Below are positions 1 through 20,000 of a stretch of DNA of 20,000 nt, in pieces. The notes under the pieces were generated by a model. It saw only the letters and a program-made list of their open reading frames with translations, did no database searches and had not been told where the DNA came from. How positions within the stretch are numbered: position 1 is the first letter of the stretch; every line of letters begins with the position of its first letter. Source of the DNA: Elsinoe ampelina (Eukaryota). The stretch spans positions 809,720 to 829,719 of the forward strand of contig ML992501.1 in assembly GCA_010093995.1 (NCBI GenBank), in the 5' to 3' direction. The position numbers and the translations under genes are program-made.

Positions 1-74
1 CCCATTTTCATTGCTTGTCTGCTTGCTTGCCGCCGCCGAACTGGTCGTGATCTGTCTAGCGATACTCTTGGTAA

Positions 75-181
75 GCGGGGATATGCTCGACCTACAATTT
101 CTCCGCCCAATAGACACTGGTATTCTCCCTTCCGGACTCTATTCGGACTCGTGGGTCTCTGTCAAAGCAGGGCCATTAGCC
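75..181. promoter_or_regulatory. Candidate CAZyme regulatory motifs upstream of the GH3 gene (CreA SYGGRG x2, CGG-N8-CGG, XlnR-type GGCTAA)
   Basis: GCGGGG at 75-80 and CTCCGC at 101-106 (reverse GCGGAG) fit SYGGRG; CGG-actctatt-CGG at 133-146; TTAGCC at 176-181 (reverse GGCTAA). Short motifs, so function is inferred from context only. Confidence 0.35.
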
Positions 182-360
182 TAATCTATTGTGAGCGATG
201 CAGGGTCAAATTTTTTGAGCATGATCAGATGGAGAAGGTCTTGATGTCGAATGGACTCTTTGAGATGCTAGGTCGGGACCTATAAGACAGCACGGGACGT
301 ATTTCCATTTTCTGTACCTTTTCTGCACACCTCTGTCTTTCATCTTTTTGCGGCGCCAAA

Positions 361-2868
361 ATGGTCAGACCCCATCTTGCTATTGCCGCCCTTGCGGCCT
401 CAGTGGCGGGCCAAAATGGCACAAACTCGACCTTCCCCTACAAGAACCCCAATCTGCCAGTAGAGGAGAGAATCAGTGATCTCCTCGGCCGTATGACGAT
501 TCAGGAGAAGACAGCTCAGCTCCTTCAAGGCGATGTACGAAACTGGATCAACGAGTCGACTGGAGCAATCAACCAGACCGGTCTCGAGGACAGCATGACC
601 AACAAGGCTGGCAGCTTCTACGTTGGCATCGCGGTCACTTGGGACGTCCTTCTCAAGGGCATTGAGACCGGCCAACGTTACCTGATGGAGGAGACGAGAT
701 TGGGTATCCCGGCATTCGTGCAAACCGAAGCCATTCACGGCTTCCTGGTATCGAACGCGACAATCTTCAACAGCCCGATCGCCTTCGCTTGTGCGTTCAA
801 CCGGAACTTGACGAGGCGTATGGCGGAGGTCATTGGTATCGAGGCTGCTGCTATGGGTACCAACCAGATGTTCGCCCCCGTGGTCGATCTTGCCCGTGAG
901 CTTAGGTTCGGTAGAGTAGAGGAAACATACGGAGAGGGTCCGTGATCGTTCACAATGCTTGAAGACCTAGTCTGACATCACTAGATGAGTACCTTGCTGG
1001 AGAAATGGGCTACAACTACGTTGTCGGCTTGCAGAGCCAGAACGTCAGCGCCATGGTCAAGCACTTTGCTGGTCAGTACCATCGACATTTCAGCTTCATA
1101 ACCCTGATGTGAGCAGGCTTTTCCAACCCCGAACAGGGTATCAATACCGCGCCTGTGCATGGTGGAGAGCGTGAACTTCGCACAACCTGGCTTCCTTCCT
1201 TCAAGAGAGCCATCATCGACGGTGGAGCCTACTCGATCATGAGCGCCTACCACAGCTATGACGGCATTCCATCCCCAGCCGATCACCATATGCTCACCGA
1301 GATTCTCCGTGAAGAGTGGGGATACAAATATTTCGTCATGTCCGACGCCGGTGGCACCGATCGACTCTTCAACAACTTCCGCACCTGCGCGGTGCAGGAT
1401 GCAAAGTGCGTGACCCAACAATGTCTCACAGCCGGCAACGACGTCGAGATGGGCGGCGGCAGCTTTAATTTCCGTGTCATCCCCGAGATGGTTGAAAGTG
1501 GCGCCCTCGACATCGCTGTTGTCGACGAGGCCGTCTCCCGCTTCCTCCGGGCCAAATTCGAACTCGGCCTGTTCGAAAACCCCTTGACTATGCTCGAGGG
1601 CGACCTGAAGAACAAAACCATCAACACGCAAGAATTCAAGGACCTCGCACGCGAACTTGACCGCGAGTCTATTGTTCTCATGCAGAACCCCAGCAAGACC
1701 CTACCCCTCAGCAAGTCCAGCAAGGTTGCTGTCGTCGGTCCCTTTGCGTCAGGCTTCATGAACTATGGCGACTACGTCGTCTACCAGAGCCAGTACCGCG
1801 GCATCGAGTACCTTCAGGGCATCCAGGAGGCTGTCGACGACGCCAGCCAGGTAACCTACGCCAAAGGCTGCGACAGGTGGAGTACCGACGAATCCGGCTT
1901 CCAAGAAGCCCTCGATGTGTCCAACGCAGCCGACGTCACCGTGCTCATCGTCGGCACTTGGTCCCGCGACCAGAACGAGCTCTGGCAAGGTCTCAATGCC
2001 ACCACCGGCGAACACGTCGATGTCGTAAGTTAAACTCCCTAGTCACCTTTCTCCCTTTATCTCCACTTGTTCCCCCCGTCTTGGACTCTCTGAACCACCA
2101 CTAATTCCCCTCTAGGCAGATCTCAACCTCGTCGGCGCCCAACGCAATCTCGCTCTCCAACTCGCCGCCACGGGCAAACCCCTCGTCATCGTCTCCTCCA
2201 GCGGAAAGCCAATTACTGAGGTTTGGATTTCGAATTCTTCCGCCAGTTTCATTCAACATTTCTATCCTGGCGAACAAGGCGGGCACGCCCTCGCCGACAT
2301 CCTCTTCGGCGACCACTCGCCCTCCGGCAAACTCTCGGTATCATTCCCGCGCGACGTGGGCACCCTGCCCATCTACTACGACTACCTCAACAGCGCGAGG
2401 AGCGTGGATGCCGGCGGGGTGAACGCCGACGGGAGCCTGAACTTTGGCCACCAGTACGTGCTTAACTCTCCGCTGGCTTGGTTCCCCTTCGGGCATGGGT
2501 TGAGTTACACCGAGTGGGAGTACAGCAACGTCACGCTTTCTTCCACGACGGTGGGAGCGAGGGATAAAGTGACTGCCACTGTGACGGTGCGTAACACAGG
2601 GGATAGGGATGGTATGGAGGTTGTGCAGGTTTATATCAAGGATGTGGTGAGTAGTGTTGTGGTGCCGAACATGAAGCTGAGGGGGTTTGAGAAGGTGTTG
2701 ATTCCTGCTGGGGAGAGTAGGGATGTGAGTGTCGAGTTGGATGTTTATGAGAGTTGTGGGTTGTGGGATCGGAAGTTGCAGTATGTGGTTGAGCCGGGTG
2801 AGTTTCAGGTGTTGGTGGGGACGTCGAGTGCGGATATTAGGGCGAGGGGGAGCTTTACTGTTGCTTAG
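361..2868 (+). CDS. Secreted glycoside hydrolase family 3 (beta-glucosidase/beta-xylosidase), about 774 aa; exons 361-937, 985-1071, 1117-2024, 2116-2868
   Basis: Signal peptide MVRPHLAIAALAASVAG; GH3 motifs TRLGIP, E(A)IHG, APVVDLARELRFGRVEETYGED, VKHF, FVMSD (nucleophile), PSGKLSVSFP, FPFGHGLSYT and a C-terminal Fn3-like domain (EVVQVY...LRGFEKV). Three GT-AG introns (938-984, 1072-1116, 2025-2115) join the pieces into one uninterrupted frame of 2325 nt. Confidence 0.96.
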
Positions 2869-4356
2869 ATGGTAGGGGAAACGATTAGGACTGAATGGAT
2901 GCCTGTGATATTTGACGGCATGAATTACTACCACAATCTGCATCCTTCGCTACTGTGACATGTGGCTACCTAAATAACGGTAGGGACGAGTAAGAACTAT
3001 CGTTTGCGTGCAGGTTGTCGTTCACTCGATCATCTTGGCACTTGTGTTTTTGTTGTTAAGCAACGAAGCTTCGATATCCGTAGGAAGAAATCGGCCCTTT
3101 GAGCGGTGGTCTTGCCTTGTCGGCCGATACATACCAGTGGGAGCAGAATCTCCGAGGGTTGACTGGAATGTGTTCAAACAGAGAAGAGCGTGGGTGAAAT
3201 GAAAGCGTGGGGGACGTTTGGCAAAGTCAGTGCCTAATGCACGCTCCGACGTGTTCATGTTCGACGACAGTACAGCACAGTACGATAGACAATTTAGAAT
3301 AGCGATGGCGATACAATAACGGCAACAGGTGAGAGACTGATTGGCCAGTCTCAAAAAAGACGAGACGAGGACCGATCTCTGGTTGGACGCCTTGTTGTGC
3401 TGACATGCATGCACAATGATGATGCGTGTGGCCCCTGGGCAGTGACACTTGCCGGCCGGCCGGCTTGCTCAATACTGTGTCGTTCATCGAGAACAAGGGG
3501 CTACGAAGGATGGGTGCGACGAGGTGATCAGAGAGGGTGTTGTATTGACCACGCACGCTGCCATTATGGTGGGGTATGGTCCGCTGAGATGGGGGCGACC
3601 AGGATCATCACCTGTTGTGCAGTGAAAGATGAGATCTGTCTGCACGATAAAATGCCGGAACGATGGGTAAGGGGATAGGAGAATGACCTCGTGACTCACT
3701 GACCTCAGCTGGAATGAACAAACAGATGATCGAATCGTATGCAACATGAGTCGGACCTGCATGAAGAGTGAGCAAAGGGAACACATCCAAGCCTCCACCG
3801 AGTCCACCGAAAGCAACAAAAGCACAGCCAGAAAAAACACCGCCAGTGCTTTTTCCCCCGTTTGCATCCCAAAGGAGCCAGCGGTGGCCGCGGACGGGAG
3901 CCCGGGACCAATGGACCTCTCACTGGGCCTAGGTTTTTGGTGGTTGGCTGCCCCCACAAGGCTGCAGCAGTGCCTAGCAATGCCTGGCAATGCCTCTCCC
4001 GTTTCACACTAACCTCCAGCTGTGCCTACTTTCCTTCCCTTCTTTTCTCTCGTTACTGTACCATACAAACAGAGGCATGAGCCACATCCGTCTTGACTCA
4101 CTGCCTGCACAAGGTCATGCCGTCGTGGCTCGAGCGCCCGTCTGACGTCCGTTGTGCATCCCTGTCGGTCTCCCTTGTTGCCTAGTGTCATGAGAGTCCT
4201 CCAAAAGGCAGAAAAGCATATCTGTCAGGCAAGTCTAACTTATATCCCTTGCCTTTGCTACGTTTCATATCTAGCCTCTTCATTCCACCAAGGCTTGTCT
4301 TCTCCTTCAACATCATCTATCTTCAACCAAGGTTCCCGTCATCATTCATCCCTATC

Positions 4357-5118
4357 ATGACAGTCCAACACCCTACCATGGTACGCCGATCCATCAACAC
4401 CATGCCACCTTCTCCACCCTCATCGACCTCACCAAAGGAGGTCAGGTTCGCCGCAGCAGACGTCTCCATCCCAACTGGAATGCGCATCTTGAATCCACAG
4501 GAAAAGGCCTCTGTCACGCACTTCGAGGGTCACGCTGCCACCTGCCGTCATTGCCAGGATGCCTATCACCGCTTCAAAGCCGGCAAGATCATGTGCGCTC
4601 ACGGTGCTGCCCTCATCAGCGATGTGAACAACCACATTGTCCGCTATCATAGTGAGATCTTCTCACGACGAGATCCAACAGTCCGCATCTCAATGCCTAC
4701 CGAGTTCAAACACATCGACGACGCCCTCAAGCTCATCGAGAAGAAAGGTCCACGCGCACCATTCGGCCTTGACGACAAGAAGATCAAGAAGGAAGCCGAA
4801 GGACGGAGTCACCACAGCAGCAGCAAGAAGGACAAGCACAAGCGAGTAGACTCTCACGGCTCCGCCAGCTACACCCAGGATCAGTACGCTGCCGCTCAAG
4901 CCTTTTACCCTTCGTCACCATTCAGCGTCCGGAACATGTCCCCCTCCTCTTCCCGCACATCCAGCACAGAATCTCGGCGACCAAGATCTTTCGAATTGGA
5001 CCAGGCTTACGGTCAACGGTCGGAATCTGTCGCCGCTACTATTGGCACAAGGGCACCAGCCTACGACACCAAGGACTTCAAACCATCATTATCCAGACAC
5101 AAAAGCCATCGCAGGTGA
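4357..5118 (+). CDS. Hypothetical protein (about 253 aa) with H-x3-C-x2-C...C putative metal-binding motif and a basic/Ser-rich tail
   Basis: Single-exon ORF from ATG 4357 with coding-like C-ending codon bias; FEGHAATCRHCQDAY...MCAHG motif; low-complexity termini. Confidence 0.75.
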   Translation: MTVQHPTMVRRSINTMPPSPPSSTSPKEVRFAAADVSIPTGMRILNPQEKASVTHFEGHAATCRHCQDAYHRFKAGKIMCAHGAALISDVNNHIVRYHSEIFSRRDPTVRISMPTEFKHIDDALKLIEKKGPRAPFGLDDKKIKKEAEGRSHHSSSKKDKHKRVDSHGSASYTQDQYAAAQAFYPSSPFSVRNMSPSSSRTSSTESRRPRSFELDQAYGQRSESVAATIGTRAPAYDTKDFKPSLSRHKSHRR

Positions 5119-5780
5119 TGGACACAGTCAGCCATCGTCGTAGATGCTCGGGATAGAGAACGATTCATTACGCCGTTTATTACGATTATTGGGATTGGAT
5201 ATTTGCACTTTACGATACCTGCTCTCCTCTTCATACAGCATGAATCGAGGATCGAGCTTTCTGTTTATGCGTTTCTTTGGCATCGGACCAGACAATTGAG
5301 ATACCCTTCGCTCCATAGAGCAGAATGTACAACCAGCCTTTTGGCAATACCACCTACTCCTCTTTGCCTGAATTCTCCTTCATGACTAGTCTCAACAATT
5401 ATTACGTTGCAGGAGTCATCAGCATGCACGCAAACGTCACCCCGCCAGGCACTGTGCACCTCCAAGCCGCGAATGCACATGTCAATGCGAGAAATGCCCC
5501 TCGTTCGCCAATCATGGCGTGAAACTGGAATGCCTGAATTCCTGCCTTATTACGACTGCATATGCGGGCGGTAGAGCAAGGTTCACCTAGACGACGACGG
5601 ACACGAGATGGCGCTCGTCACTGATCGACGCCAACCTGAAATGGCAAAGGGTGAGTGTTCAAGCCACAAGCTGTGGCTTTGGACAAGCGAAAGATTGGAA
5701 AGGATGAGAGGCTGTGCGGGGGGCCTCGCTCAGCCCTCTCTTCGAATTCACCTTTGTCTGCTTATGGATCAACCAACATC

Positions 5781-6095
5781 ATGCAGTATCAAACGGGATC
5801 GATTCCATACGATCCTATCGAGATCGATAGTGATAGGGACTTCTCGATAATACTATTCGCGAAGAACTCGACGTTTGACCTTTCCAAGCACTCCCTGGAT
5901 CCAACCACGATGAAAGAGGATCTGCAGCGTGCTCAAACTAGTAGGAAGGTACTGATGGCCCATGGACGACGCTTCCATACAAGCTTGCAGAGAACCATGC
6001 TCAATGAGACAATCTATCTTCACCCAGATGGCCACTTTACAGACGAGAGTTACCATCCTTCTTCGCCAGACAATGTATTCGTTCTCTGGAAATGA
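5781..6095 (+). CDS. Possible small hypothetical protein or exon (104 aa from ATG 5781)
   Basis: Open frame 5655-6095 with protein-like composition; no recognisable domain; a GTGAGT donor at 5651 could not be joined convincingly. Confidence 0.25.
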   Translation: MQYQTGSIPYDPIEIDSDRDFSIILFAKNSTFDLSKHSLDPTTMKEDLQRAQTSRKVLMAHGRRFHTSLQRTMLNETIYLHPDGHFTDESYHPSSPDNVFVLWK

Positions 6096-6910
6096 CTACC
6101 ACAATTCGACCCGCCATAAGGTATGCCTTCTCTATACCCATGAGATGAAAGTATGAATGGTCGTCTCCAAGTGCCGAAACATCAAGCTGGTGGCACCGCG
6201 AGGATTACATGGACGACATTGAGCTGTGTAGCCACCTACCGATTACCTGTCATGGCATCAGTCTAGAGATTGCCGCTGCAAACCGCATATCATCATGCTC
6301 GAAAGATAAAGGGTAGGCAATGTTGCATGCATGTATTAGAGTCGTCCGCTCCAAGACGGTACCGTATCAAATCGACCAGTGGCCCCTGTGATCAATCCGA
6401 CACCACTCATTGAGTAACAATCTTCCAGGGCCTTCATCTGACCAATCGTCTTTACTCATCGAGTTCTGACAGAGTAACGATGAGGGCGGAACTCGTGTCT
6501 TAGACCCGGATCCCCAGGGACTCCCCCTCCACACCCCAGACGCCAGAGCCAATACCTTCTCCCGACAAACAACGACCCCGGACCGCCCACATGGAGAGCG
6601 CATGCTTGAAGCGAACAAGCTTCGGCGACAGAAGCTTGTCTGGACGTGCACACGGGAAAATGCTCCACTAATTCCTCAAACCACCAGTATGGTTGGTTCA
6701 GAACGCGGAGATCTGCATACAACGCCGTGATATCCGGGCTTCAGCAGACAGCGTCGTCATCTTTATGCAGCTGCACGGTAGATTCTGCAATTTGCCCGGC
6801 AGCAAAGGAAACACGAAACGAACACCCTCTTCTACCCCAGAATCCCCGCCTCCAATGCATATCGCATCTTCCCTCCTTCCCAGCAGGTGCAACACCCCAC
6901 CAACCTCACC

Positions 6911-8493
6911 ATGGCGACAACCACCAAACCCCCGTCCCCTCCCTCCTCCACCGTCTCCCACCTCGAACACCAACCCCCCGAACACTCCTCCGTCCCAACC
7001 GCCCACCTCTCCGAATCCCACAAACAATACCTCCTCGCCCGCCACGGCACCCTCACCCTCCACCCCCTCCCCACCGCCCACGACTCGGACCCCTACAACT
7101 TCCCCCACTGGCAAAAAACCACCAACCTCCTCCTCGTCGCCTTCCACGCCATGACCGCCACCTTCACCGCCTCGGCCATCCAAAGCGCCTACCCCGCCAT
7201 CGCCGCGGACCTGGCCATCTCCCTGCAAAAAACCACCTACCTCACGTCCCTCCAGATCGCCATCCTCGGCGGGGCGCCCTTGTTCTGGCGCCCGCTCTCG
7301 CAGCGCTACGGACGCCGCCCCGTCTTCCTGCTCAGTCTGATCTGCAGTCTGGTGGGCAACGTCGGGTGCGCGGTGTCGAGGACTTTCGCGACGCAGGCAC
7401 TGTGTCGGGCCATCGTGGCGTGGTTCATCAGTCCCGCTGCCGGGATCGGGAGTGCGGTTGTGCAGGAGACGTTTTTCGAGAGGGAGAGGGCGAGGTATAT
7501 GGGCTGGTGGACGTTGATGGTCACGTTGGGGGTGCCGATTGCGCCGTTTTTGTTTGGGTTTGTGGCGCAGAGGGTCGAGTATAGGTGGATTTATTGGATT
7601 TTGGCGATTGTGAGTAGAGAAGAGAAGGTGATGAGGGATGGTACTGACTGGAGTAGATGAATGGTGTGCAGTTTGTGTTGTACTTCTTCTTGGGGCCCGA
7701 GACGAGGTATGTCCGGACTGGAGTGGAGCATTCCACTTCGGATCTGAAGGCAAAGTACTGGGAGTTCAAGCGGTTGGATCCGACACCGATGCGACTGAAG
7801 GACTTCTACTCTCCGCTTGTGCTAGCGGCTCGACCGGTAGTGTTGATCCCTGCTGCAGCGTACAGCATGGTCTTTCTGCTTGCTGGAGTCCTCCCAACAG
7901 TCGAGGTCGCACAGCTTTTTGCGGAAAAATTCGAGTTCGATGCCCAGCAGCTCGGACTCCAGTATCTCGGCTTCATCATCGGTGGCGTGATTGGAGAACA
8001 ACTAGCTGGCCCACTCAGCGATTGGTGGATGCGGCGAGGCGTAAAAGATGGTAAGGTGAGGCCCGGAAACGAGCACAGGCTCTGGCTTGCATATCCAGGA
8101 TTCGCACTCGCCGTGGTAGGTATAACAGTCTTCCTGGTACAGACTGATCGACTTCCTCCACTGCATTACAACGTCACACCAATTGTAGGTGCAGCCATCG
8201 CAGCCGCTGGTAATCAGATCGTCACAACCATCTTGGTGACCTACGCCGTGGACTGCTATCCGCAAGAAGCAGGAAGCGTGGGTGTCTTCGTCACCTTCGT
8301 GAGGCAGATCTGGGGCTTCTTGGGCCCGTTCTACTTCCCACAAATGTTTGCCAATGTTGGACTGCGAGGATCCGCCGGCATATGTGCAACTTTGATCATT
8401 GGGGCAGCGATTCTACCAACGGCAGTGCTACAGCTGAGCGGAAGGAAGTGGAGAAGAACCAGAGACGCCAGAGGACTGGATGAGAAAGACTGA
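6911..8493 (+). CDS. MFS transporter, DHA1 (drug:H+ antiporter) like, about 511 aa; exons 6911-7609 and 7657-8493
   Basis: DPYNFPHWQK N-terminal motif, motif A region PLSQRYGRRPV, FFERERARYMG, YRWIYWILAI, FFLGPET, GPLSD, EHRL, YAVDCYP; about 12 hydrophobic segments. Intron 7610-7656 (GTGAGT...TACTGAC...TAG) joins the two ORFs in frame. Confidence 0.95.
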
Positions 8494-8510
8494 TCATTGG
8501 ATCGAAAGTC

Positions 8511-10848
8511 TTAGCCGGGCGCAGGTCCAAAGCTGTTGTCCCAGGAGAAGTCCTGCTGTGGGAAATTGAACAGCGTTGGATCTTGAGCCTCGCCCGTGTT
8601 GAGCAGGGTATCCCAAGCGCTCTGCAAACTGTCAGCAAGGATCAAGATGGCCAGCAGCGATAGCTCTCACCCAGTCTATAGTTGCAGTCACATCGTTCAT
8701 CGGGGTGTCAAAAATATCGTCAAAGGAGACATTGTCAAATCCTGCATGTGCTCCATCACCACCAGATTGTATCGAGGAGGTTTGGAAAGCAGGTCCGACA
8801 GTCGTGGTACTCATTTGTGTAGGCACTTGATGTGCATCACGTGGAGAGTCGCTGCCCATCATGGCAGGTACAGTCCGTTTGAGCTTGCTTCCACTCCGAC
8901 GACTGCCAGGGTGTTCTGTCTGAGATCTGGATTGCTCAAGTAGGTGCGATAATGCTTTTGCGGCTCGCCGAGCTTTCATTGGTGCTCGTTCCCAATTGCT
9001 TCAGATTTCTGTCGATTTCTCCAGGGCATCCATCATAGATTTTCGCTCTTCCTGAATGCTCGATTCTGGTCCATCCGACTCTGCCCTGTGCTTGCTATGA
9101 GAGAGCTCAACCCCAACGACAATACCCCCCAAGATGAAGCAGTCCATACAATCCCGTATTTGCTGGTAATGGATGGATTCGAGTTGTCCGCCCTCCCAGA
9201 TAGCCTCACCAAGGACGAGATGGATGTTGACGATCTCAAGTGCGGCTCCGAGACATAGCTTTCTTTCAAGATGATCTGTCGTGCCAAGATGGCGTCGGAA
9301 AAGGACGCAAATGTTTTCAGACGGAACAATTCCACCTTGATTCGCTCCATGATCAATTGTGTATCACCGAATGATTGATCAAGTGACTTCATGCGAAATA
9401 TGCTTGGCGTATCCTCATGGATTCTTGTGAGTTGAGCATTTAGCTTATGAGCTATGGCAGGGTCCGGTCGGTCAGAAGAGTTGGATAGTGATACAGCCTC
9501 TGCGAATATAAGTATCATGTGGCCCATGATAATGCTGGATGCGATGAAGGTCTTCTCCGACGCCGGCCGCGGTGGTGGGAGATGCTCAGATTGTGTAGAA
9601 AAGTCCGAGTCTTCCAGGTTGAGTGGCATGGCCGTGTTTGCTTGTAGCGCCCGGATGACACTAACGAGTCCGATCTGATAGCTGAAGATGATATCCAAGT
9701 GGCAGATGGCTAACCAGATCCTTCGCCGAATCTCTGCCACGAAAGGTGTTACATCAGAGCGGCCACCAGCATCGCGAAACATTCCCATCCTCGTTGCGAG
9801 ACGAGTGACAAGTCCAAGCTGTAACCATAACTTGAGCTGATCGGCATCACTCTTAGTCTGGCCGTACCTGATCAACAATATGAGAGCTTCTAGGAGGTAA
9901 AATTTTGGCCGGGCATAGTCAGCAAGGATGACAGCATGCGTAGCCATCTCGTGGAAGGTCTCTCCAGGGTGGGGCTCCGATGACTCGGGAGGTGATTTAC
10001 GTGAATACTGATCGCCTAGCGCGAGGATGTCGAAGAGGACGGCGAGCCAAACTGGAGAGGCTGCTGTGGGATTCTCCCAGAAGGCAGTGTACTACGACCA
10101 TTAGTCTCGTTAGTGGGTACTGCGCAACTGCCCACTTGCCTGCTGCTGGAAAGTCGGAACATGCACAATATCTCGCAAACGATAAGCGCGGTTCAGAGTA
10201 GATGTTCAATGAACTTACACCTGTACGTGTCACAGGACATGAAGAATGCTGCAATCAGCTTGTCACAAGTTTCGCTGGAACATAGGCGAGCAAATCATCC
10301 ACGGTGTATGCACTGGGCCCAGGGAAAAACAGATCAGGTGTCCCTCGGCTTCCACTAGAGGTGGTAGGCTGGGTCAAAACTCCAGGGAGGGTGGAGGAAA
10401 CCACATCGGGGTCGTCGTCAAGATGAGTCTTGATCTCGGCAATTTCGTTGACAAGGCTCTCCCAGTGAGCTGGACCGACGAAAGCAGTCTCACTGTCTGT
10501 AATCTTCAGGCGGCCCTGCGAACCCGTGGGAGGTTGAGAAGAAGTATCGCTAGACTGGTCTGCAGTGGACGGAGTTGCAGCTTCGGCAGCCTTGTCAACT
10601 CTGGTCGTGATGCCTCCGAGATCTTTTACCATCTGCTCAAGACTATCCAGTCGCCTTCGCATGGCCTGCGATTGCGACTTGTAGGCCAAGGATTCTTGCA
10701 TTGAGCTCGAGTAGACGCATTGAGGCTCGCGAGACCTTCGTACACATTCCCGACACGGTAGCGCCCGGTCGCATCGTAATTTGCCAGTCCTGCATGGTTT
10801 GCAGCTTTTCTGCGGACGCTGGCGGCGTTTAATTTCATTTTGACTCAT
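8511..10848 (-). pseudogene. Zn(II)2Cys6 transcription factor with fungal TF middle homology region, apparently disrupted; reconstructed about 730 aa; exons 10848-10219, 10171-10140, 10091-8671, 8621-8511
   Basis: CKPCRTGKLRCDRALPCRECVRRSREPQC zinc cluster; MHR motifs CDKLIAAFF, IVHVPTFQQQYTAFWENP, RLATRMGMFRD, EIRRRIW, MPLNLEDSD, ICVLFRR, C-terminal IDW/SAWD. Continuity needs frameshifts at about 10270 and 9315 and read-through of TGA at 9003-9001 (ALEKSTEI*, a position normally Trp). Introns 10218-10172, 10139-10092 (GC-AG), 8670-8622. Confidence 0.88.
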
Positions 10849-10874
10849 GGCACATGTGTGAAGGACAAAGGAAG

Positions 10875-11134
10875 TGTTGACTTGTGTGGGGGAGGAAAAA
10901 AGGATTAATTACTGCCTAAACCACCAAAATGAGGTAGATTATAACTACATAAATACTTAACCTGGTATACTAAAAGATAGCTAAATCAAAAGAACTTCTT
11001 AATAGTAGCAGATTAAGACAATAATTATCTAATTTAATTATAGATTAGTAAAATAGTAAGATAGTGTTTAGTTTAACCTTGGGATAAACTAAATCAGGGT
11101 CTTCTTAGCGCTCTAGCTTATACCTCGGTTAATA
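10875..11134 (-). repeat. Probable 3' LTR (260 bp) of the Copia element
   Basis: On the minus strand AAAGGGG polypurine tract (11143-11137) precedes TATTAAC (RIP of TGTTGAC) at 11134; the far end reads TGTTGAC at 10875 on the plus strand, giving TGTTGAC...GTCAACA terminal inverted repeats. The partner LTR is outside the window. Confidence 0.65.
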
Positions 11135-12579
11135 TACCCCTTTACTAAGTAGCTATAACTCTATAATAGCTAGTTAGTAGACTACTAACTCGAGGGATAG
11201 CTATTATAAGAAGGCCTTATACCTCCTAGGTAGTAATAATTTAGTAAATCCATTAGCTAAGATATCTACTAATAGTGTCTATATAACTAAGATAGGACTA
11301 GATAGATCTCTAGCTTAATTAATCTCTTGTTTTAGCTAATAATAATAAATATTAATATAGTAAAGATATATATTTAGCTTCTTAATTAAAGTAGTAATAA
11401 GACTAATAGTTTACTAATTATTATACTAAATACTAACATGTTTAAGGGGATAGATAAAGGCTATTAGCCTCCTCTACTACATAGCTTACTTAGTAGTCTC
11501 TATAAGAGTAAGTAGCTTAGCCTCTATAGTTAATATTATAACTATTAATTACTTTATAGCCTTCTAGTTAATTAATCCTTAAAACATCTTAAAGAGATAG
11601 CCTTAAAAGCTCTTCCTTATTAGGTAGCTACTAAAGCTAGTATCTAATAAAGCTTAAAAGATTAGTAGTAGTATTAAGCTATTAAAGGTAAGAGCTAAAT
11701 TCTTAGTTTTATAGAAATATTAGATTACTCTATTTACTATCCTCTAGTAAGTTAGTAATAGATTTATTAGATGCTCTAACAATCTAGAAGTAGTAAAGGC
11801 TATATTAGGCCTTATAATAACTACTACAAAGTTAATAGATTCAACCTTTTACTAATATAAGTAGATCTCCTATAGTAATACTTAGCCTTTATAAGGTTTA
11901 AGTATCTTAATTAGTAGTAGTATTAACACTAGCCTTATTAGTTCTATAATAAACTTACTATATATCTATTATATATACTAGGCTTAGCTAAGCTAGAGTC
12001 TCTTTATTAGTCTATCCCTTATAACTTAGATAGCTAGAAACTAGCTTAGATCTTTAAGCACCTTTATCTTATATTTAGTATAGAGAGCTATAATAATAGT
12101 ATTAGCTTTCTCCTTATACTTCTTAAGATATATAATAGTAATATTATCTATAAAGAAGAAGATTATTACTTTAGGTATTATCTAGAGGTATAGAGCCTTA
12201 GAGGCTTAAGTAAATCTAATACTCTTTAGAGTAGTAGTAAATTTAGTATACTAGAGAGCTAGGGCTTACTTTAGGCTATATAGTGCCTTATTAAGCAATA
12301 AAATTGCCTCTAATAGAGTAATACTAGGATAGTCCTTTATAAGATTCTCTACTACTAGCTTAAATCTAGTAGGGATAGTATAGTAGGTAGTCTTATTAAT
12401 AGAACTATTAATATAAGTATTAATAACATCTATCTAAATAGCCTTTATATCTTTATAAGTAAGTAATACTATAAGCATTCTAAAGATCTTAGCTACTAGA
12501 GTTACTATATAAGTCTTAGATTCTATTAATTAAAGATTACTTCTTATATAGACTTTTACTTTATACTTTATAACCTTTC
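10875..12579 (-). mobile_element. Ty1/Copia LTR retrotransposon remnant, 3' part (RT, RNase H, PPT, 3' LTR), RIP-inactivated
   Basis: Minus-strand literal translations: YKVKVYIRSNL* (YKAKVCVRGDLQ), LLNKALYSLK*ALAL*Y (KALYGLKQAPALWY, about 12250-12298), FFFIDNI (FVDD, about 12140-12160), IN*KAIK*...TIEAKLL (IDWKATKQ...TTEAELL), *YNN**TI (CDNQQTI), YINIYYY*LKQE (HIDIHHHWLKQE), ILANGFTK (ADGFTK, about 11240-11263). Confidence 0.92.
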
Positions 12580-13042
12580 TATTACGAACTAGTAGGACAG
12601 CTAGAACGTAGGGACGTTAGGACCAATTAAGCTACTAAGATTATTACGTGACCTAGCCCGACATTTACTTAGTTCTCTATCTTCTCTAGTAGCTCTACCT
12701 CTAAAACTATAGAGCGCATAGGTTACTAGTAGACGTGTACTCTGTATTACTCCTAACTCTTACTATAGAGTATATAGAGCACACAGAGAACGTAATAGAG
12801 AATATATATATATAGGAACAGTTCTTACCTTATGTAAGTACTATAGTTAACCTTGTCTAGATAGTAAACACTAGTATTACTAAGGCTAGCCTTTGTAATA
12901 CTATCTAATTGTACTTTATTATCTATAAGATATACCTTCTCTAACTCTTACCTTAGTGCTATACTACTATAGAAGTAGAACTCTCTTATTCTTAGCTTAG
13001 CTTAGACTACTAGTGTAGACTATATTTAGATAGTTCGTAACA
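12580..13042 (+). repeat. 5' LTR of the Gypsy element
   Basis: Direct repeat of 19135-19597; ends T(A)TTACGAACT...AGTTCGTAACA form an 11-bp inverted repeat (TG mutated to TA); TATA-like (TA)6 at 12803-12814. Confidence 0.96.
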
Positions 13043-13158
13043 TTTTAACTACTCTTACTATAGCATAGTACATTACAAGGTTAATAAGTAACTCTTGCTC
13101 TAAGTTACTATTAGCATCTTCGATCGCTAGTAAGCTAGAAAAGCTTACTATTAATAAC

Positions 13159-15144
13159 ATGTCTACTACTAGTTTAACCTCGGGTAAGTATAGAAGGTCT
13201 TTTAGTATAGAGGAAGGACAGAGTAAGCCTAAGTTAGAAGTAGAACTCTTTTATAGGGACCGCGCCTACTTAAGGCGCTTCCTTGTTTAACTTAAAGCCT
13301 TTTTTGCTCTAGAGAGGAATAAGTACGCTAACAACGCAGTAAAGGTCCTCTATGCTAGGATACACCTTAAAGGCGCTACCTTCGGGTAGTTCGAGCCTTA
13401 TATAAGTAGCTACCTAGATAGATAACTAGGCCTAGATATAAAGGCTATCTTTAAGAGCTTTAGTATCTTCTAGGCAAAGATTAAGTAAGTCTTTAATATA
13501 TCTAACAAGGAACGTATCGCTATAATAAAGATCTAACAATTATAACAACGTAGGTCTATAGCCTAGTACTATTCCTAGTTCTAACAACTCGTAATGTACC
13601 TAGACTAGAACAATAGTACTAAACACTTAGTATTCTATTAAGGACTAAGTAACTTAGTTAAAGACTAAATAATACTTAAGCTGCCTAATAGCCTTTAGGA
13701 ACTAGTAGACACTATAATTACTATTAATAACAGACTTTACAAACGACATATAGAACGTTATAGAGAATATAAGGTAAATACTAGATATACGTATTCCTCC
13801 CGAAACTATAGAGACCCTATAGAACTTAATACTATACGTAAAGGCTGCCCCTTATAAGTATAAGGCTATAGCTATAGAGGAAAGTTCCTTAGTAGAAAAG
13901 AGAGAGAGAAGTACAGACGAGATAATCTATATTTTAAGTATAAAAGACCTAGGCATCGGGCTAGAGACTACTAATAAGGGGCGCTAGCTAATAGATTATA
14001 TATAATAGTTACTAGGCTAGTAGAGAAAAAGGCTAACACTACTAAAAAAGACCTAACGACCTTTAGCGTAGGTAAGGAAATATAGAAGGGGTCTATAACA
14101 ACTTAAGAGGTAATAGAATCCTCTCTAGATGTTATACTTAATATCTCTACGACTAATAGCGAATAACAAAGTTAATACGTAATACTATTATAGATAGTAT
14201 ATTATAATAACTCTTATTATATTTACTTATTAGACAAGTAGGGATCTAGTTAGTTCCTATATAAGCTATCTAAGCGTAGGCAACTAACAAAATAGCTAGA
14301 CTAGGGGCTTAACCTAGAAAGGCACTCTATAATTAGTAGTAACATTAACTAACCTTAGAAGGTAGTTAGTAACAATTACTAATATATAATTATTAAGATA
14401 AAGTATTAAGACACGAGTGCTATATAACAATATAGTAGCCTTACCTTTAGCCCTTATAGCGAACTACAAGGAAAGGTATATTATATGTTGCTCTAGAAAT
14501 ATACAAATTTAGATTATAAATAGTACTATACTATCTACTTATACGATGTACTTAGAGAAGACGCTATTAGTCTTAAATACACTATAGACTTCTCGGTAAT
14601 CGAGATAGGTAGTACTATTCCCTATAGCTAAGTAAGAGAATATACTTAGTATAGCCTTACTAATTATAACTACGCTAGAGGTAGTAGCAATAAAGAGGAA
14701 TATAACAAAGAATACACTAAACAACTATAATATAATAACATAGATAAGGACTTATCTAACAATAATAACGACGTACTACTATTAGGCGAATAACTTAAAG
14801 TATACCTTATAGGGATATAGAGGAATTATATAATAATATACACCTACTACTAGAATAGGATATAATAAGACAAATCTATATAACTTGTTTTTGTCTTTAA
14901 TACTAACGCCTAGCTATACCCGGAAGGAATAGTTATACCTATATAGGTGTATAACACTACTTAGTGTAACTAGTAGAGAATTATTAGACTTTATAGCTAC
15001 TAAGGGACTTAGGCGCTAGAAGTTTACCTTACTATATTAAATAGCGACAAAACACAACTTGTCTAATAGATATAGTACTAATAGTAGATACGTGTAGGAA
15101 GGGATTAGCTACTTATCTAAGGAGCTACAATGACAAAAAACTAG
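13159..15144 (+). pseudogene. gag: Gypsy gag (661 codons, RIP-disrupted)
   Basis: ATG 13159 is in frame with TAG 15142-15144; KVLYARIHLKGATFG*FEPY capsid segment; YRDPIELN (YGDPMELD) at about 13807; LYFKYKRPRHRARDY = RIP-altered CCHC knuckle (CxxCxxxxHxxxxC) at about 13927-13971. Confidence 0.88.
15135..15144 (+). other. Putative -1 ribosomal frameshift site A AAA AAC directly before the gag stop
   Basis: ACA AAA AAC TAG in the gag frame; pol motifs (15255, 16245) lie in the -1 frame. Confidence 0.8.
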
Positions 15145-18100
15145 CTAGTTGTTACCTAATAAGGTAAGACAATAATACTAGCTAAAGCCTTAATATAATA
15201 AAGATCTACATGTTAAATTACTTTATACTAGAAGTCTAGATATAAGAAAACAAGGTAAGAGCAATAATAGATTTAGGAGCTAACTATAGCTACGTCTCTA
15301 TAATAATTACTAATTAGCTTAAACCTTATTAACATTAGAAGGAGTTACCTTACCTACTTACTATAGCGGATAAAACCTTTATAGGGAAGAATAGAAAAGT
15401 TACTTAGAAACTACGAAACGTTATAATCTAAATCGAAATATATACGGAAAAACAATTAATTGATATAGTTAATATATAGTACAATATAGTACTTAGTATA
15501 GACTAGCTATAATAACATAACCTAGACGTAGACTAGATTAAAGAAACACTCGAATTTTCTAAGTGTAATTATAGAATATAGAGAGTATAATTAGCTCCGC
15601 GGATACTAACTATAAGGACAGTATAAGTACGACTAATAGTTAGAGCTATTACTAGCGTAAGTAATTAAGCACTTCCGCTAGAATATAAAGACTTTAAGGA
15701 CTTATTTAAAGAAAGAGAAGGTATCGTAGCCTTACTCTAATATAAACTATAGAATTACGAAATACCTTTTAAAGAGAGTAAATCCCTAATATACTATTAA
15801 GGTCTTATACTACTATCGAAACAAGAGAAGAATATCCTTAAGAACTATATCGATAAGTACTTACTTAAAGGATTTATACAACTATTAAAATTACCTATTA
15901 CACACGAAGTGCTTTTTACACCAAAAAAGGATAGAACATTATAAATATATATTAATTACTAGAAACTTAATACACTTACTAGGAAGAATTACTATTCCCT
16001 ACTAAGGATTAACAAACTTTAAGACTAACTACTTAGAGCTAAATAGTTTACTGTAGTTAATATTAGAGACGTCTATTATTAAGTATAAATAAAGGAGAGT
16101 AAGGAGTAGAAGACGGCTTTTAGGATATAATAGAGTCTATATAAGTACCTCGTTATGCCCTTTAGGTTAACTAATACTCCTATAACCTTCTAAGAGTTAA
16201 TTAATAACACTCTATAAGAATACCTTAACAATTTTATCTTAGTATATTTAGATAATATTATTATCTTCTTAAAGACGTATAATAAACATATAGGACATGT
16301 TTATAAAGTGCTATAGAAACTAAAAGAAAAAGACCTACTAGTAAAACTCTCTAAGTATAAGTTCTATAAATACAAGATATAATTTCTAGACTATATTATA
16401 TCTACTAATAGTATTAGACCTAATCTAAAGAAGATCGAGTTAGTAAACGACTAGCTAGAACCTATAATAGTTAAGGAGGTTTAAGCGCTACTAGAGTTCT
16501 TTAACTACTACTATAAGTTTATTAAGGGATTCTCTAAGGTAGCTACGCTAATATCTAACCTTACGAAAAGGGAAACTAGCTTTGTCTTTAACGAGAGATA
16601 TAGGTAGGCCTTTAAGGAGCTAAAGCTTAGACTTATAATAGTACCTGTCTTAGTACTCTTCGACCTAGACTAATAAGCACTACTAGAAACAGATACTTTA
16701 GACTTTGTAATAGAAGTGTGTCTAGCGTAGAGGGACGCGGAAGAATAACGCTACCTAATTATATATTACTTACAAAAAATGACCGGACCTAAACTTAACT
16801 ACGACATATATAATAAGGAATTACTTACGATTATAGAAGTATTCCGCAAGTAGAGAGTATACCTAGAAGAAATAACCTTACCTATATAAGTCTATATAGA
16901 CTATAAGAACCTACTATATTAGATAATAACTAAAGTTCTTAATAGACAACAGGTCCGATAGTTAGAAACACTTATAAGCTATAACTTCTAGATCTACTAT
17001 ATTAAGGGATTAGAGAATAGCGGAGTAGATGCTCTTAGCCGCTAGCTAGATTACTTAAAAAACATAACAATAATAGAGGCCTCTATACTAAAGTAGTAGG
17101 ATAGCGCTCTAGTCTATAAGTACCTAAAGGTAAAGTAGTTATATAGCCTTACCTAGGAGCTTACGTAAGAACAGAAGAAAGAAGTTATTTAAATACACTA
17201 TAATAACCTAATAGCGGGACATAGTAGGATCGATAAGACTATTAAACTTATTATATAAAACTACCTCTAGAAAGAACTCCGAAACGATATTAAGACGTAT
17301 ATTACTGCCTACGATATATGCTATAAGTCTAAGCACTCTCGACATAGACTATATAGCCTACTATAACCCTTACTACTACCGGACAAACTATAGTAATTAG
17401 TTATAATAGACTTTATAGGACCTCTACTGCTATTAGAAGAACCTCTTATAGGTGTAAAGTATAATAGTATTCTAGTTCTAGTAGATAGGTTTACGAAGTA
17501 TTACTACTTTATACTATATAAGATAATAGTAACTACTAAGGATATAGCCTTTACCTTCCTCTAAATAATTGTTTTATAACATAGAGTACTACGAGACTTA
17601 ATAACTAATAGGGATAAGCTATTTACGTTACAATTCTAGTAATTATTTATAGACCTACTAGGAGTTAAATATAAGCTATTAACCTCCTTTTACCTATAAA
17701 CGGATAGACAAACTAAACGGGCAAATTAAGTACTAGAGTAGTATCTATAATGCTATCTAAACTATAAGTAAGACTTATAGGCGACGCTATTACCGCTTAC
17801 GGAGCTCGCTATTAACAATAGAAAGTTAGTAAATAGAATTTTACTATTCTACGTAAACTATAGGATATATCTAGATCTACACTATAACATACTTAGAATT
17901 AAGCTAGTATCTAAGGATACTAACACACTAGTAGCTAACATTAAGAAACTACACGACTAGCTATACTATAATATAGCATTTATATTACAAAGAATAGTAG
18001 AGTTTACTAACCAGAAGAGAATTACAGGACTAATTCTATAGGAGAGAGAGAAAGTTTACCTCCTTAGTAAAAACATTAAAACGAAACAACCAAGTAAGAA

Positions 18101-18515
18101 ACTTAACTATACTAAACTAGGACCCTTTAAGATCCTAGAAAAGAAAAACAAGAACGTATATAAACTAGAACTACTAAGATATATAAGGATTTATCTAGTC
18201 TTTTATATATTACTACTAGAGAAAGTACTATAGAATACTATACCTAGACTTATTAAACTAGATAAAGAAACATAGGAGCTACGGTATAAGATAGAAAGAG
18301 TTTTACGTTATAAACTTATAAAAGGAAAACGCTACTATCTTATCTACTAGAAAGGACATTAGTATAGTAAGGCAATATAGGAACTAGAGGAACACTTTAC
18401 CTTATAAGTAATCCTAGAGTATTAAACTAAAAACCTATCCTAAGTAAACTAACTAGGTAGACCTAACGCTACTAATACTAAACAAAAATAAGAACGCCTA
18501 AGGAAGACTACTTAA
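15141..18515 (+). pseudogene. pol: Gypsy pol (protease, RT, RNase H, integrase, chromodomain), RIP-disrupted; 3' end approximate
   Basis: VRAIIDLGA (AMIDSGA, 15255), YLVMPFRLTNTP (VMPFGLTNAP), YLDN (YLDD, 16245-16256), ETDTLDF (ETDASD), NYDIYNKELL (NYDIHDKELL), integrase HHCC remnant (about 17195-17320), GPFKILEK, IYLVFYILLLE (IHPVFHVSLLE), chromodomain YKIERVL...YYLIY*KG...AI*ELEEH (about 18285-18395). Confidence 0.93.
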
Positions 18516-19060
18516 CTAATAAGAGCGCCCTAATTATTACTAAATAAGGAACCCTAATCGGAGTTAGGCATAAATAACTACTAATCCTATAGTAGGACAG
18601 GATTTACTAACGATAGTATTTCCTCTTGCTCTAGAACTTAAGTACGAGTTTCCTCTAGGGAAATTACTTTCTCTACCTTATCCTCTAACTTCTATATCTC
18701 TTCGTATAGGCGAAGCTTATTGCCTATAGCTCTTTAATAAGCCTCTTTTACCTTTTTATAAGCTTCTTTAGCTTTCCTTCTAGTAGCCTTAGCTATAACT
18801 AATTCCTTTTATAAATAAATATACTTAGACTAGAGATGCTACTATTCTAATTTTGTTACCTAAATATTATAACCTAAGTAGTTACTTATAACATACTAGC
18901 TATAGATACCTAACTAAATATAGACCTTATAGTCTAGCCCCTTCGATTTATAACGAGAATAAGCCTATAGCATATTAGTTCTAAATAGTTTAATAAACTC
19001 TAAGAGATTCTTTCGTGTAGATATACTAGATTCGCTATGCCTTTAACAACTAGGAGACAT
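18512..19060 (-). pseudogene. Antisense ORF3 of the Gypsy element: putative Zn(II)2Cys6-like protein with coiled coil (about 180 codons, RIP-disrupted; ends approximate)
   Basis: From ATG 19060 the frame reads ...ML*AYSRYKSKGLDYKVYI*LGIYS*YVISNYLGYNI*VTKLE**HL...; six TAT codons (expected RIP product of TGT) at spacing x2-x6-x8-x2-x7 (18961-18869), followed by an A/E/K/R-rich helical stretch. Confidence 0.7.
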
Positions 19061-19134
19061 ATTTAGTACATAGCACGTAAAGACAAGAAAGAATACTTAC
19101 TTATTAGGACAACTCGATTAAAGAAGAAGAGTAA

Positions 19135-19597
19135 TATTACGAACTAGTAGGACAGCTAGAACGTAGGGACGTTAGGACTAATTAAGCTACTAAGATTATT
19201 ATATAACCTAGCCTAATATTTACCCGGTTCTCTATCTTCTCTAGCGGCTCTACCTCTAAAACTATAAAGCGCATAGGTTACTAGCGGATATATACTCTAT
19301 ATTACTTCCGACTCTCGCTACGAAGTATGTAGAGCATATAGAGAACGTAATAGAGAATATATATATATAGGAATAGTCCTTACCTTATATAAGTACTATA
19401 GTTAACCTTGTCTAGATAGCGAACACTAGTATTGCTAAGGCTAGCCTTTGTAATACTATCTAATTGTACTTTATTATCTATAAGATATACCTTCTCTAAC
19501 TCTTACCTTAGTACTATACTACTATAGAAGTAGAACTCTCTTATTCTTAGCTTAGCTTAGACTACTAGCGTAGACTATATTTAGACAGTTCGTAACA
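19135..19597 (+). repeat. 3' LTR of the Gypsy element
   Basis: Colinear with the 5' LTR without indels; about 39 mismatches by manual count, all transitions; preceded by AAAGAAGAAGAG purine tract. Confidence 0.96.
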
Positions 19598-20000
19598 CTT
19601 TTCTTTATTATTAACTTTATAGGTAAATACCTATATTAAAGAGATAGGCTTACTAGTGCTACTAGTATAATAGTCTATATATGTTTTAAGTATAAAGTAA
19701 GTAATTTAACCTTTATAGCCTCTTAAAATTGCTTCTTATAAGGATAAGCCTTAAGTTCTCTAATATTAGCTAGTAGTAGTAGGAGATTGTCTCTTAATTC
19801 TAGCTTAGGCTAAGTTAGTATTATTAATAGATAAGTATTAAAGGCTTAGTAATATCTAGGAGCCTTATTAGTTTATATAAGAGTAGTAATATATACTTAC
19901 CTTCTTAGTTTTCTTATTCTTCTTATTATAAGAATATATTTAGGAAGAAGGTTAGCTAACCTTATAGTAATTCTTTAAGGGAGTTACTTAGGCTAAGCTT
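19598..20000 (-). mobile_element. Continuation of the Ty1/Copia element (upstream part of RT), running beyond the window
   Basis: Minus strand KPISLI*VFTYKVNNKEK (WVFTYK motif) joins in frame to VIKYK... at 12574 after removing the Gypsy element and one TSD copy. Confidence 0.9.

Follow-up and report, generated by a model that had tools for sequence, protein, structure and literature searches.

We analyzed a 20,000-nucleotide stretch of the Elsinoe ampelina genome (the window; positions 809,720 to 829,719 of contig ML992501.1, assembly GCA_010093995.1, forward strand), the GC content of which is 0.50–0.62 over bases 1–10700 and 0.27–0.34 from ~10800 on. The AT-rich part contains a Ty3/Gypsy chromovirus degraded by repeat-induced point mutation (RIP): two long terminal repeats (LTRs) enclose relics of gag and pol on the plus strand, and the minus strand carries, between the chromodomain relic and the 3′ LTR, the relic of an antisense open reading frame (aORF) that is the subject of this study (Table 1). 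A sequence-only reading of the window had proposed that about 600 bp at this place conceal an antisense gene for a Zn(II)2Cys6-like DNA-binding protein. This spacer was confirmed, with ~690 bp between the estimated end of pol and the start of the 3′ LTR belonging to neither gag nor pol.

Table 1 Features of the degraded chromovirus and its antisense frame, in window coordinates
Feature	Position	Strand	Description
Target-site duplication	12575–12579 and 19598–19602		5 bp; CTTTC paired with CTTTT
5′ LTR	12580–13042	+	463 bp; TATTACGAAC...GTTCGTAACA; pre-RIP TGTTACG...
Self-priming primer-binding-site relic	13043–13058	+	Directly after 5′ LTR; TTTTAACTACTC...
gag relic	13159–13971	+	ATG through CCHC knuckle; Retrotrans_gag E 8e-4 on read-through with X at stops
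pol relic	15129–18446	+	Protease, reverse transcriptase, RNase H, integrase, SH3_Tf2-1, chromodomain; end (~18446) extrapolated
Chromodomain relic	starts 18285	+	Aligned to relatives
aORF relic	18485–19060	-	ATG at 19060; ancestral stop near 18485 estimated from L004 alignment
Long-helix (coiled-coil) relic	18581–18853	-	Aligned to helix 75–156 of the P0001 model (pLDDT, predicted local distance difference test, 94–98)
Cys6 cluster relic	18869–18961	-	Six TAT codons where the family has Cys
Hairpin relic	19101–19113	+	TTATTAGGACAAC; just upstream of the polypurine tract; assigned by position and loop only
Polypurine tract	19120–19134	+	AAAGAAGAAGAG(TAA); adjoins 3′ LTR
3′ LTR	19135–19597	+	463 bp

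All 39 differences between the two LTRs (91.6% identity) are transitions, and the RIP indices of the element (TpA/ApT 2.0; (CpA+TpG)/(ApC+GpT) 0.24) compare with values of 0.55 and 1.27 in the GC-rich flank. The hallmarks of a chromovirus found in the window are the LTRs, a gag with a CCHC relic, the order reverse transcriptase, RNase H and integrase (RT-RNaseH-INT), and a chromodomain relic. When stops were read through as X, the plus strand matched the Pfam families Retrotrans_gag, RVT_1, RT_RNaseH, Integrase_H2C2 and SH3_Tf2-1; Pfam Chromo gave no match on this read-through of the window itself, and the relatives, which carry the full chromovirus domain set, match Chromo at E 1e-11 to 1e-18. 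These relatives lie on metagenome contigs (loci L001–L028), of which L004 is nearest to the window by pol: a tblastn search with L004 pol (residues 60–1150 of 1165) aligned to window positions 15129–18401 at 48% identity over 1092 residues, stopping 15 residues short of the L004 pol end. AT-rich, RIP-like DNA also lies on both sides of the element (10800–12579 and 19598–20000); it is no copy of the element, as a repeat search of the window returned the LTR pair only.

RIP turns TGT (Cys) into TAT (Tyr), and the gag knuckle of this element at 13930–13971 reads Y-x2-Y-x4-H-x4-Y, the same internal calibration of Cys-to-Tyr change to which the sequence-only reading had appealed. The minus-strand frame that it had described from the ATG at 19060 was reproduced exactly. 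The frame contains 18 stops (13 TAG, 5 TAA and no TGA) and six TAT codons (18961–59, 18952–50, 18931–29, 18904–02, 18895–93 and 18871–69) spaced Y-x2-Y-x6-Y-x8-Y-x2-Y-x7-Y, followed by a charged run rich in A, E, K and R; a seventh TAT at 18922–20 (Y47) falls where the family has His. This copy of the gene is dead, unable to make protein. By itself, the tyrosine pattern is weak evidence and within chance: Tyr accounts for 8.7% of six-frame residues in 10801–20000, the pattern matched twice in the six frames of that region (the second match, at 13840, is junk), and 300 dinucleotide-preserving shuffles gave a mean of 0.21 matches, with at least one match in 18% of them. The shuffles and the junk match would thus suit an account in which the pattern and the charged run are chance products of a RIP-biased noncoding spacer.

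The aORF site exceeds chance because it is homologous to natural proteins. A phmmer search using the minus-strand frame (X at stops) against 1.84 billion representative proteins returned six natural proteins of 175–211 aa at E ≤ 1e-3, the best at E 6.1e-13 over ~145 residues. The consensus of these homologues (...SSTxRRKxLGEFIxxFGxxMPRACSxCRxxGxECKVHVRSGxCGxC...C[DN][IV]R[VI]TxxEWxRL...) leads into a C-terminal part made of a long charged helix and then the tail LALSPFTWSAxDGLxDxFW. When the window frame is aligned to the family, its six Tyr lie under Cys, the seventh under His and one TAG under Trp, with no Tyr, stop or His position at odds with the family. Of 27 near-invariant family positions, 12 are unchanged in the window, and by our reading of the codons, 14 of the 15 differences are explicable by C>T or G>A only. 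Furthermore, BLASTP of the window frame against the L004 aORF gave E 2e-18 and extended to the distinctive C-terminal tail; the relative closest by pol is also matched in its aORF through that tail. The ancestral peptide deduced in the sequence-only reading came close to the homologues' MPRACSxCRxxGxECKVHVRSGxCGxC, including the His at the seventh Tyr. Taken together, the phmmer homology, the family alignment and the tail match with L004 refute a chance origin, to which we give a negligible probability, and window positions 18485–19060 are almost certainly the relic of a conserved element gene. Pfam assigned no family to the window's own minus-strand frames, as expected because Tyr replaces Cys.

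Other copies from the same genome agree with this origin. Contig pieces from this genome align to the stretch in large number (2483 in one set), and in that set 166 of 170 variant sites are transitions. Their majority letter restores family residues at three places (S2P, H75R and N153D) and opens one stop (codon 84, TAA>CGA); at other codons, the window is a less mutated copy than the same-genome majority.

A profile built from the six phmmer matches recovered 51 proteins, nearly all unnamed or annotated as “hypothetical protein”, and ESM Atlas clusters of 140, 122 and 62 members belong to no Pfam family and have Ascomycota as their commonest phylum. Scanning of contigs yielded the 28 metagenome loci, in 24 of which the ORF is open across the whole match; it ends ~15 codons early in a sequence recorded twice (L006 and L007), and in L020 and L026 it is broken. 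Every one of the 22 distinct intact aORFs has the spacing C-x2-C-x6(8)-C-x8-C-x2-C-x6-8-C (L028 has the x8 second gap), so the less-mutated relatives do have six Cys in an open minus-strand frame, as had been anticipated from the window. Across the family alignment, four Cys never vary, and the remaining two are near-invariant (90% or more). The homologues' length, 175–211 aa, also fits the earlier idea of a truncated factor without a middle homology region, and no longer fused form of the protein was found, which is weak evidence.

The setting of the gene is conserved as well. In 9/9 loci tested, the aORF lies between pol and the 3′ LTR on the antisense strand, tail-to-tail with a chromodomain pol that is an intact ORF of the order PR-RT-RNaseH-INT-SH3_Tf2-1-Chromo (PR, protease); the end of pol adjoins the 3′ end of the aORF or overlaps it by up to ~95 nt, and gag (Retrotrans_gag and zf-CCHC) lies beyond pol. 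Its conservation and its place, on the strand opposite to pol and between pol and the 3′ LTR, put this ORF in the aORF-3R class (PMC7264820). Many contigs bearing relatives are 6.1–7.3 kb long with identical 123–174-nt ends (L005, L013, L015, L019, L024, L025 and L027); they are circularly permuted assemblies of one LTR and the internal part, and this accounts for the varying position of the aORF within contigs. One shorter arrangement was also observed, a 2.4-kb derivative (L006:4673–7086, equal to L007:9551–11964) with two 330-bp LTRs 95% alike, which keeps the N-terminal part of gag, is without pol, and has an open aORF (175 aa, equal to P0003, on 5 contigs).

In intact relatives, the aORF is under purifying selection. 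The ratio of nonsynonymous to synonymous divergence (dN/dS), a check suggested in the sequence-only reading, was 0.03 (L014/L015) and 0.10 (L019/L027) at dS 0.42–0.46, as low as that of pol in the same pairs (0.05 and 0.14, with gag at 0.28), and the values were unchanged outside the overlap of aORF and pol. Usable dS was obtained in 4 of 300 pairs, two of which were near saturation (omega 0.51 and 0.72) and given no weight. The history of the gene was compared with that of the last 420 aa of pol in 11 loci (L001, L004, L005, L008, L010, L015, L018, L019, L025, L027 and L028). Pairwise identities of aORF and pol showed a Spearman correlation of 0.10 (p 0.49; Mantel p 0.056; 55 pairs), and an aORF clade with support 99 was scattered on the tree of the pol integrase-chromodomain region, where it needs 4 changes; an approximately unbiased test on the pol data rejected that clade (p 0.0025). 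Recombination, or swapping of modules between element lineages, is the simplest reading that the comparison of these 11 loci suggests.

Conflict between the aORF and pol trees would also suit the idea that the frame is a fragment of a host transcription factor captured once and carried as a passenger, and retroelements are known to capture host sequence. We regard such a passenger as very improbable: the gene is open in elements whose pol C-termini are just 43% identical or more, its dN/dS is as low as that of pol, and the ORF is still open in the 2.4-kb derivative that has no pol. No longer host-type relative was found either, although this is weak evidence.

What the gene product does was approached through its predicted structure. 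An AlphaFold2 model based on 48 sequences had a mean pLDDT of 82.5, with the cluster region at ~88–94; it places an N-terminal helix at residues 17–31, two short helices starting at the CxxC pairs and a single helix over residues 75–156 (pLDDT 94–98), followed by a less certain tail. When the full model was compared with 350,542 chains using Foldseek, the first 17 matches listed (ranks 1–21) were Zn2Cys6 DNA-binding domains, among them Leu3, Gal4, Pho7, Hap1, Put3 and Lac9, and ranks 1–10 were again Zn2Cys6 domains when the domain-only model was used; across both searches, the superpositions had a root-mean-square deviation (rmsd) of 2.2–3.2 Å over 29–37 residues, the cluster alone in the full-model search giving 2.2–3.0 Å over 29–34 residues. 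Only five chains had a VIA Z of at least 2, among them Ppr1 (Z 2.3) and Gal4 (Z 2.3; 42 residues aligned at rmsd 2.6). A VIA-wide search with the full model returned long coiled coils only (Z up to 7.5) and was uninformative on the cluster. In UniRef, one family member, P0050, has been named automatically as “Zn(2)-C6 fungal-type domain-containing”.

Homodimer modeling gave a score of 0.51, compared with 0.02 for the best of three controls. For comparison, 21 of 30 proteins known from solved structures to be same-chain pairs attained this mark and 0 of 23 solved as single chains did (on eukaryotes, 17 of 29 same-chain pairs and 0 of 30 single chains). Contact agreement across three runs was at least 81% and partner pLDDT at least 77; the modeling used no alignment, and coiled coils may pass it through resemblance to solved ones. 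We put the chance that the product is a dimeric zinc-cluster DNA-binding regulator only a little above even.

The boundary between the gene and the LTR bears on how such a product would be expressed. In 23 loci, the aORF ATG lies 42–113 nt from the LTR start (74 nt in the window), with the polypurine tract in between; relatives read ...GGAGGGGGATAG|TGTTACG at the junction of tract and LTR. So short a gap leaves hardly any space for a promoter outside the 3′ LTR, and the promoter of the aORF, or at least its transcript start, would accordingly sit within that LTR or at its margin. The U3 regions of the relatives' LTRs have in common CACGTG palindromes (ATCACGTGAT), GCTCAGTG/TGATCAC repeats in runs and the TATA box GTATATAG.

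Just upstream of the polypurine tract, 18 of 20 relatives have a hairpin ending 16–24 nt (mostly 17–18) before the LTR boundary. It consists of a 4–8-bp stem and the loop (A)GG(A), and its 15 different 5′ arms show compensatory changes (for example AGCTTCG/CGAAGCT, AGCGCTG/CAGCGCT and CTTGCG/CGCAAG); stems of at least 6 bp occur in 12 of 20 relatives as compared to 9.65% of shuffles. RNAalifold returned no pairs on the hairpin alignment because the loop length varies, and a per-sequence stem search was used instead. The hairpin keeps its distance from the LTR and not from the start codon of the aORF, so its probable role is in the priming of the plus strand or in formation of the 3′ end. At the other end of the element, the LTR and leader of eight relatives were checked for self-priming: in seven (L001, L004, L005, L013, L015, L019 and L025), the bases that follow the LTR complement 8–9 nt lying 34–37 nt downstream of the LTR TATA box, and the complements covary (GTGTTCAA/TTGAACAC, GCGTTCAA/TTGAACGC, GTGTTTAA/TTAAACAC and AGTAGTCAA/TTGACTACT). 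No exact complement of this kind was found in the window, which we attribute to RIP.

Several results weigh against reading the relic as an element gene for a GAL4-like, DNA-binding protein. The 21-bit cut-off of Pfam Zn_clus was reached by 0 of 48 members (no other Pfam family reached its cut-off either); 10 of 48 matched Zn_clus with E values no higher than 1 (lowest 0.063), and another scan gave 9.7–12.1 bits. Profile searches of Protein Data Bank (PDB) sequences gave no significant match (LEU3 E 0.69–1.9, LAC9 0.87), with the zinc-ribbon ribosomal protein L37Ae faring better at E 0.077, and the fold scores were all weak (Foldseek E at least 0.28, VIA Z 2.3). The modeled homodimer is antiparallel (contacts 109:109, 123:88 and 130:81), unlike the short parallel coil of GAL4, and would hold the two clusters ~100 Å apart. 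Across the LTR regions of eight relatives, no conserved CGG-Nx-CCG pair was found, and two had no such pair at all. Within the host genome, none of the 40 best-supported of 177 variant sites in the same-genome copies restores a Cys codon, and the conflict between the aORF and pol trees means that divergence of the gene did not simply follow that of pol.

Much of this would be accommodated if the gene were a real and conserved part of the element but its Cys6 module bound RNA, single-stranded nucleic acid or a host protein instead of specific DNA sequences; possible roles are then a replication or packaging cofactor, an integration adaptor or a means of countering silencing, and the long helix would serve as scaffold. 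Such a reading draws on the missed Zn_clus threshold, on L37Ae as best PDB sequence match, on the antiparallel dimer model and on the LTRs without a conserved CGG pair. Also in its favor are the invariant His that follows Cys3, an additional helix at the N terminus that GAL4-type domains lack, and the conserved hairpin between the aORF ATG and the polypurine tract, a potential RNA partner. Set against it are the GAL4-type spacing, exact in 22/22 ORFs, the Zn2Cys6 domains at the top of both Foldseek lists, an acidic-aromatic tail suited to an activation domain, and the hairpin's distance, which is set by the LTR and not by the aORF. On balance we hold a protein that does not bind specific DNA sequences to be unlikely, if still the main competitor. 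As for the claim with which the analysis began, the resemblance to Zn(II)2Cys6 held for spacing and best fold matches and failed at the Pfam threshold: the family is Zn2Cys6-like and, by Pfam's rule, not a member. The reading that we prefer is that the minus strand at 18485–19060 is a RIP-killed third gene of an Ascomycota Ty3/Gypsy chromovirus lineage, the product of which was probably a zinc-cluster regulator.

Under this zinc-cluster reading, the LTR would be bidirectional, its 5′ copy driving gag-pol and its 3′ copy driving the antisense aORF. The ~190-aa product would hold two zinc ions in its GAL4-type Cys6 cluster, pair through its 80-residue helix and end in an acidic-aromatic tail of activation-domain type (LSPxTWxAxEGxPDxFW), and would thus represent a minimal yet complete DNA-binding regulator made by the element, acting most likely on the LTR promoter of the element itself or on genes of the host. 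More tentatively, and with odds that we place short of even, the lineage as a whole may encode its own minimal GAL4-like factor from a 3′ LTR antisense promoter, tuning its own bidirectional LTR promoter or rewiring host genes, with the module swapped between element lineages by recombination.

Fungal LTR retrotransposons are annotated as gag plus pol, and the present group encodes a conserved, selected third protein. If that protein is a complete small transcription factor, the element owns a regulatory arm, which would make questions about control of the LTR promoter, action on host genes and retention of the antisense strand at the 3′ end open to testing; hundreds of fungal “hypothetical proteins” would then be this transposon regulator if it is indeed GAL4-like. 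The proteins of the aORF family are transposon genes, to be masked or labeled as such in fungal gene sets. More generally, real genes can be recovered from dead repeats when RIP is read in reverse, with Tyr taken for Cys and TAG for Trp.

Antisense genes at this position have precedents. For the Boty element of Botrytis, an antisense gene, brtn, is reported between pol and the 3′ LTR in the passages that cite it (PMC8365987, PMC7264820, PMC4227169, PMC5987419), so that the statement in the sequence-only reading that canonical chromoviruses consist of gag and pol only was not quite right (PMC8365987, PMC7264820). Boty resembles our element in being a chromodomain Gypsy element of a fungus that has an additional opposite-strand gene between pol and the 3′ LTR; unlike our aORF, brtn is given no zinc cluster in those citing passages, and the two were compared by position and orientation. 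The aORF could be of the same family as brtn of the Boty-like elements of Botrytis cinerea and Sclerotinia, in which case the gene itself would already be known, and what is new would be limited to its zinc-cluster interpretation and to the RIP relic. The host kingdom, the chromodomain Gypsy type, the place and the orientation given in the passages on brtn all agree with this (PMC8365987, PMC7264820, PMC4227169), and no BRTN-named protein was among the 51 + 15 matches (nr included), a weak counterpoint given that candidates were picked by shared 5-mers; we judge the identity rather unlikely. In plants, the Ty3/Gypsy elements RIRE2, Grande, Retand and PvRetro13 are described as having antisense ORFs of unknown function between pol and the 3′ LTR (PMC7264820). 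These resemble the aORF in position, orientation and within-family conservation and differ, as far as the description goes, in that their hosts are plants, their lineages are mostly not chromoviruses and no zinc cluster is reported. Full-text literature searches turned up no fungal LTR retrotransposon described as carrying a zinc-cluster gene; one paper mentions only “additional domains” in complex nested elements (PMC3248453).

At the level of the protein, the aORF family shares with GAL4-type Zn(II)2Cys6 domains (PF00172) the six-Cys spacing and, in its model, the two short helices started by CxxC and a helix after the cluster, and with factors such as Gal4, Leu3, Put3, Hap1, Ppr1 and Pho7 a predicted homodimer, a distribution in fungi only and the best fold matches. 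It departs from them in falling below the Pfam cut-off, in the invariant His two residues after Cys3, in the extra N-terminal helix, in an 80-residue helix modeled as antiparallel, in having no middle homology region, in its length of ~190 aa and in being encoded by a retrotransposon.

In its backbone, the host element is like the fungal self-priming chromoviruses of Tf1 type, with a CCHC-bearing gag, the domain order PR-RT-RNaseH-INT-SH3_Tf2-1-chromodomain and a primer site complementary to the transcript start; Tf1 itself, to our knowledge, has a single gag-pol ORF and no antisense gene. For the antisense gene, a counterpart in arrangement is HBZ of human T-cell leukemia virus type 1 (HTLV-1), a basic leucine zipper (bZIP) factor whose minus-strand gene is transcribed from the 3′ LTR. 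HBZ differs in being a bZIP protein of a vertebrate retrovirus with no homology to the aORF, and the likeness is one of analogy, not kinship: in both, a small dimerizing protein of transcription-factor type, predicted as such for the aORF, is encoded antisense beside the 3′ LTR of a retroelement.

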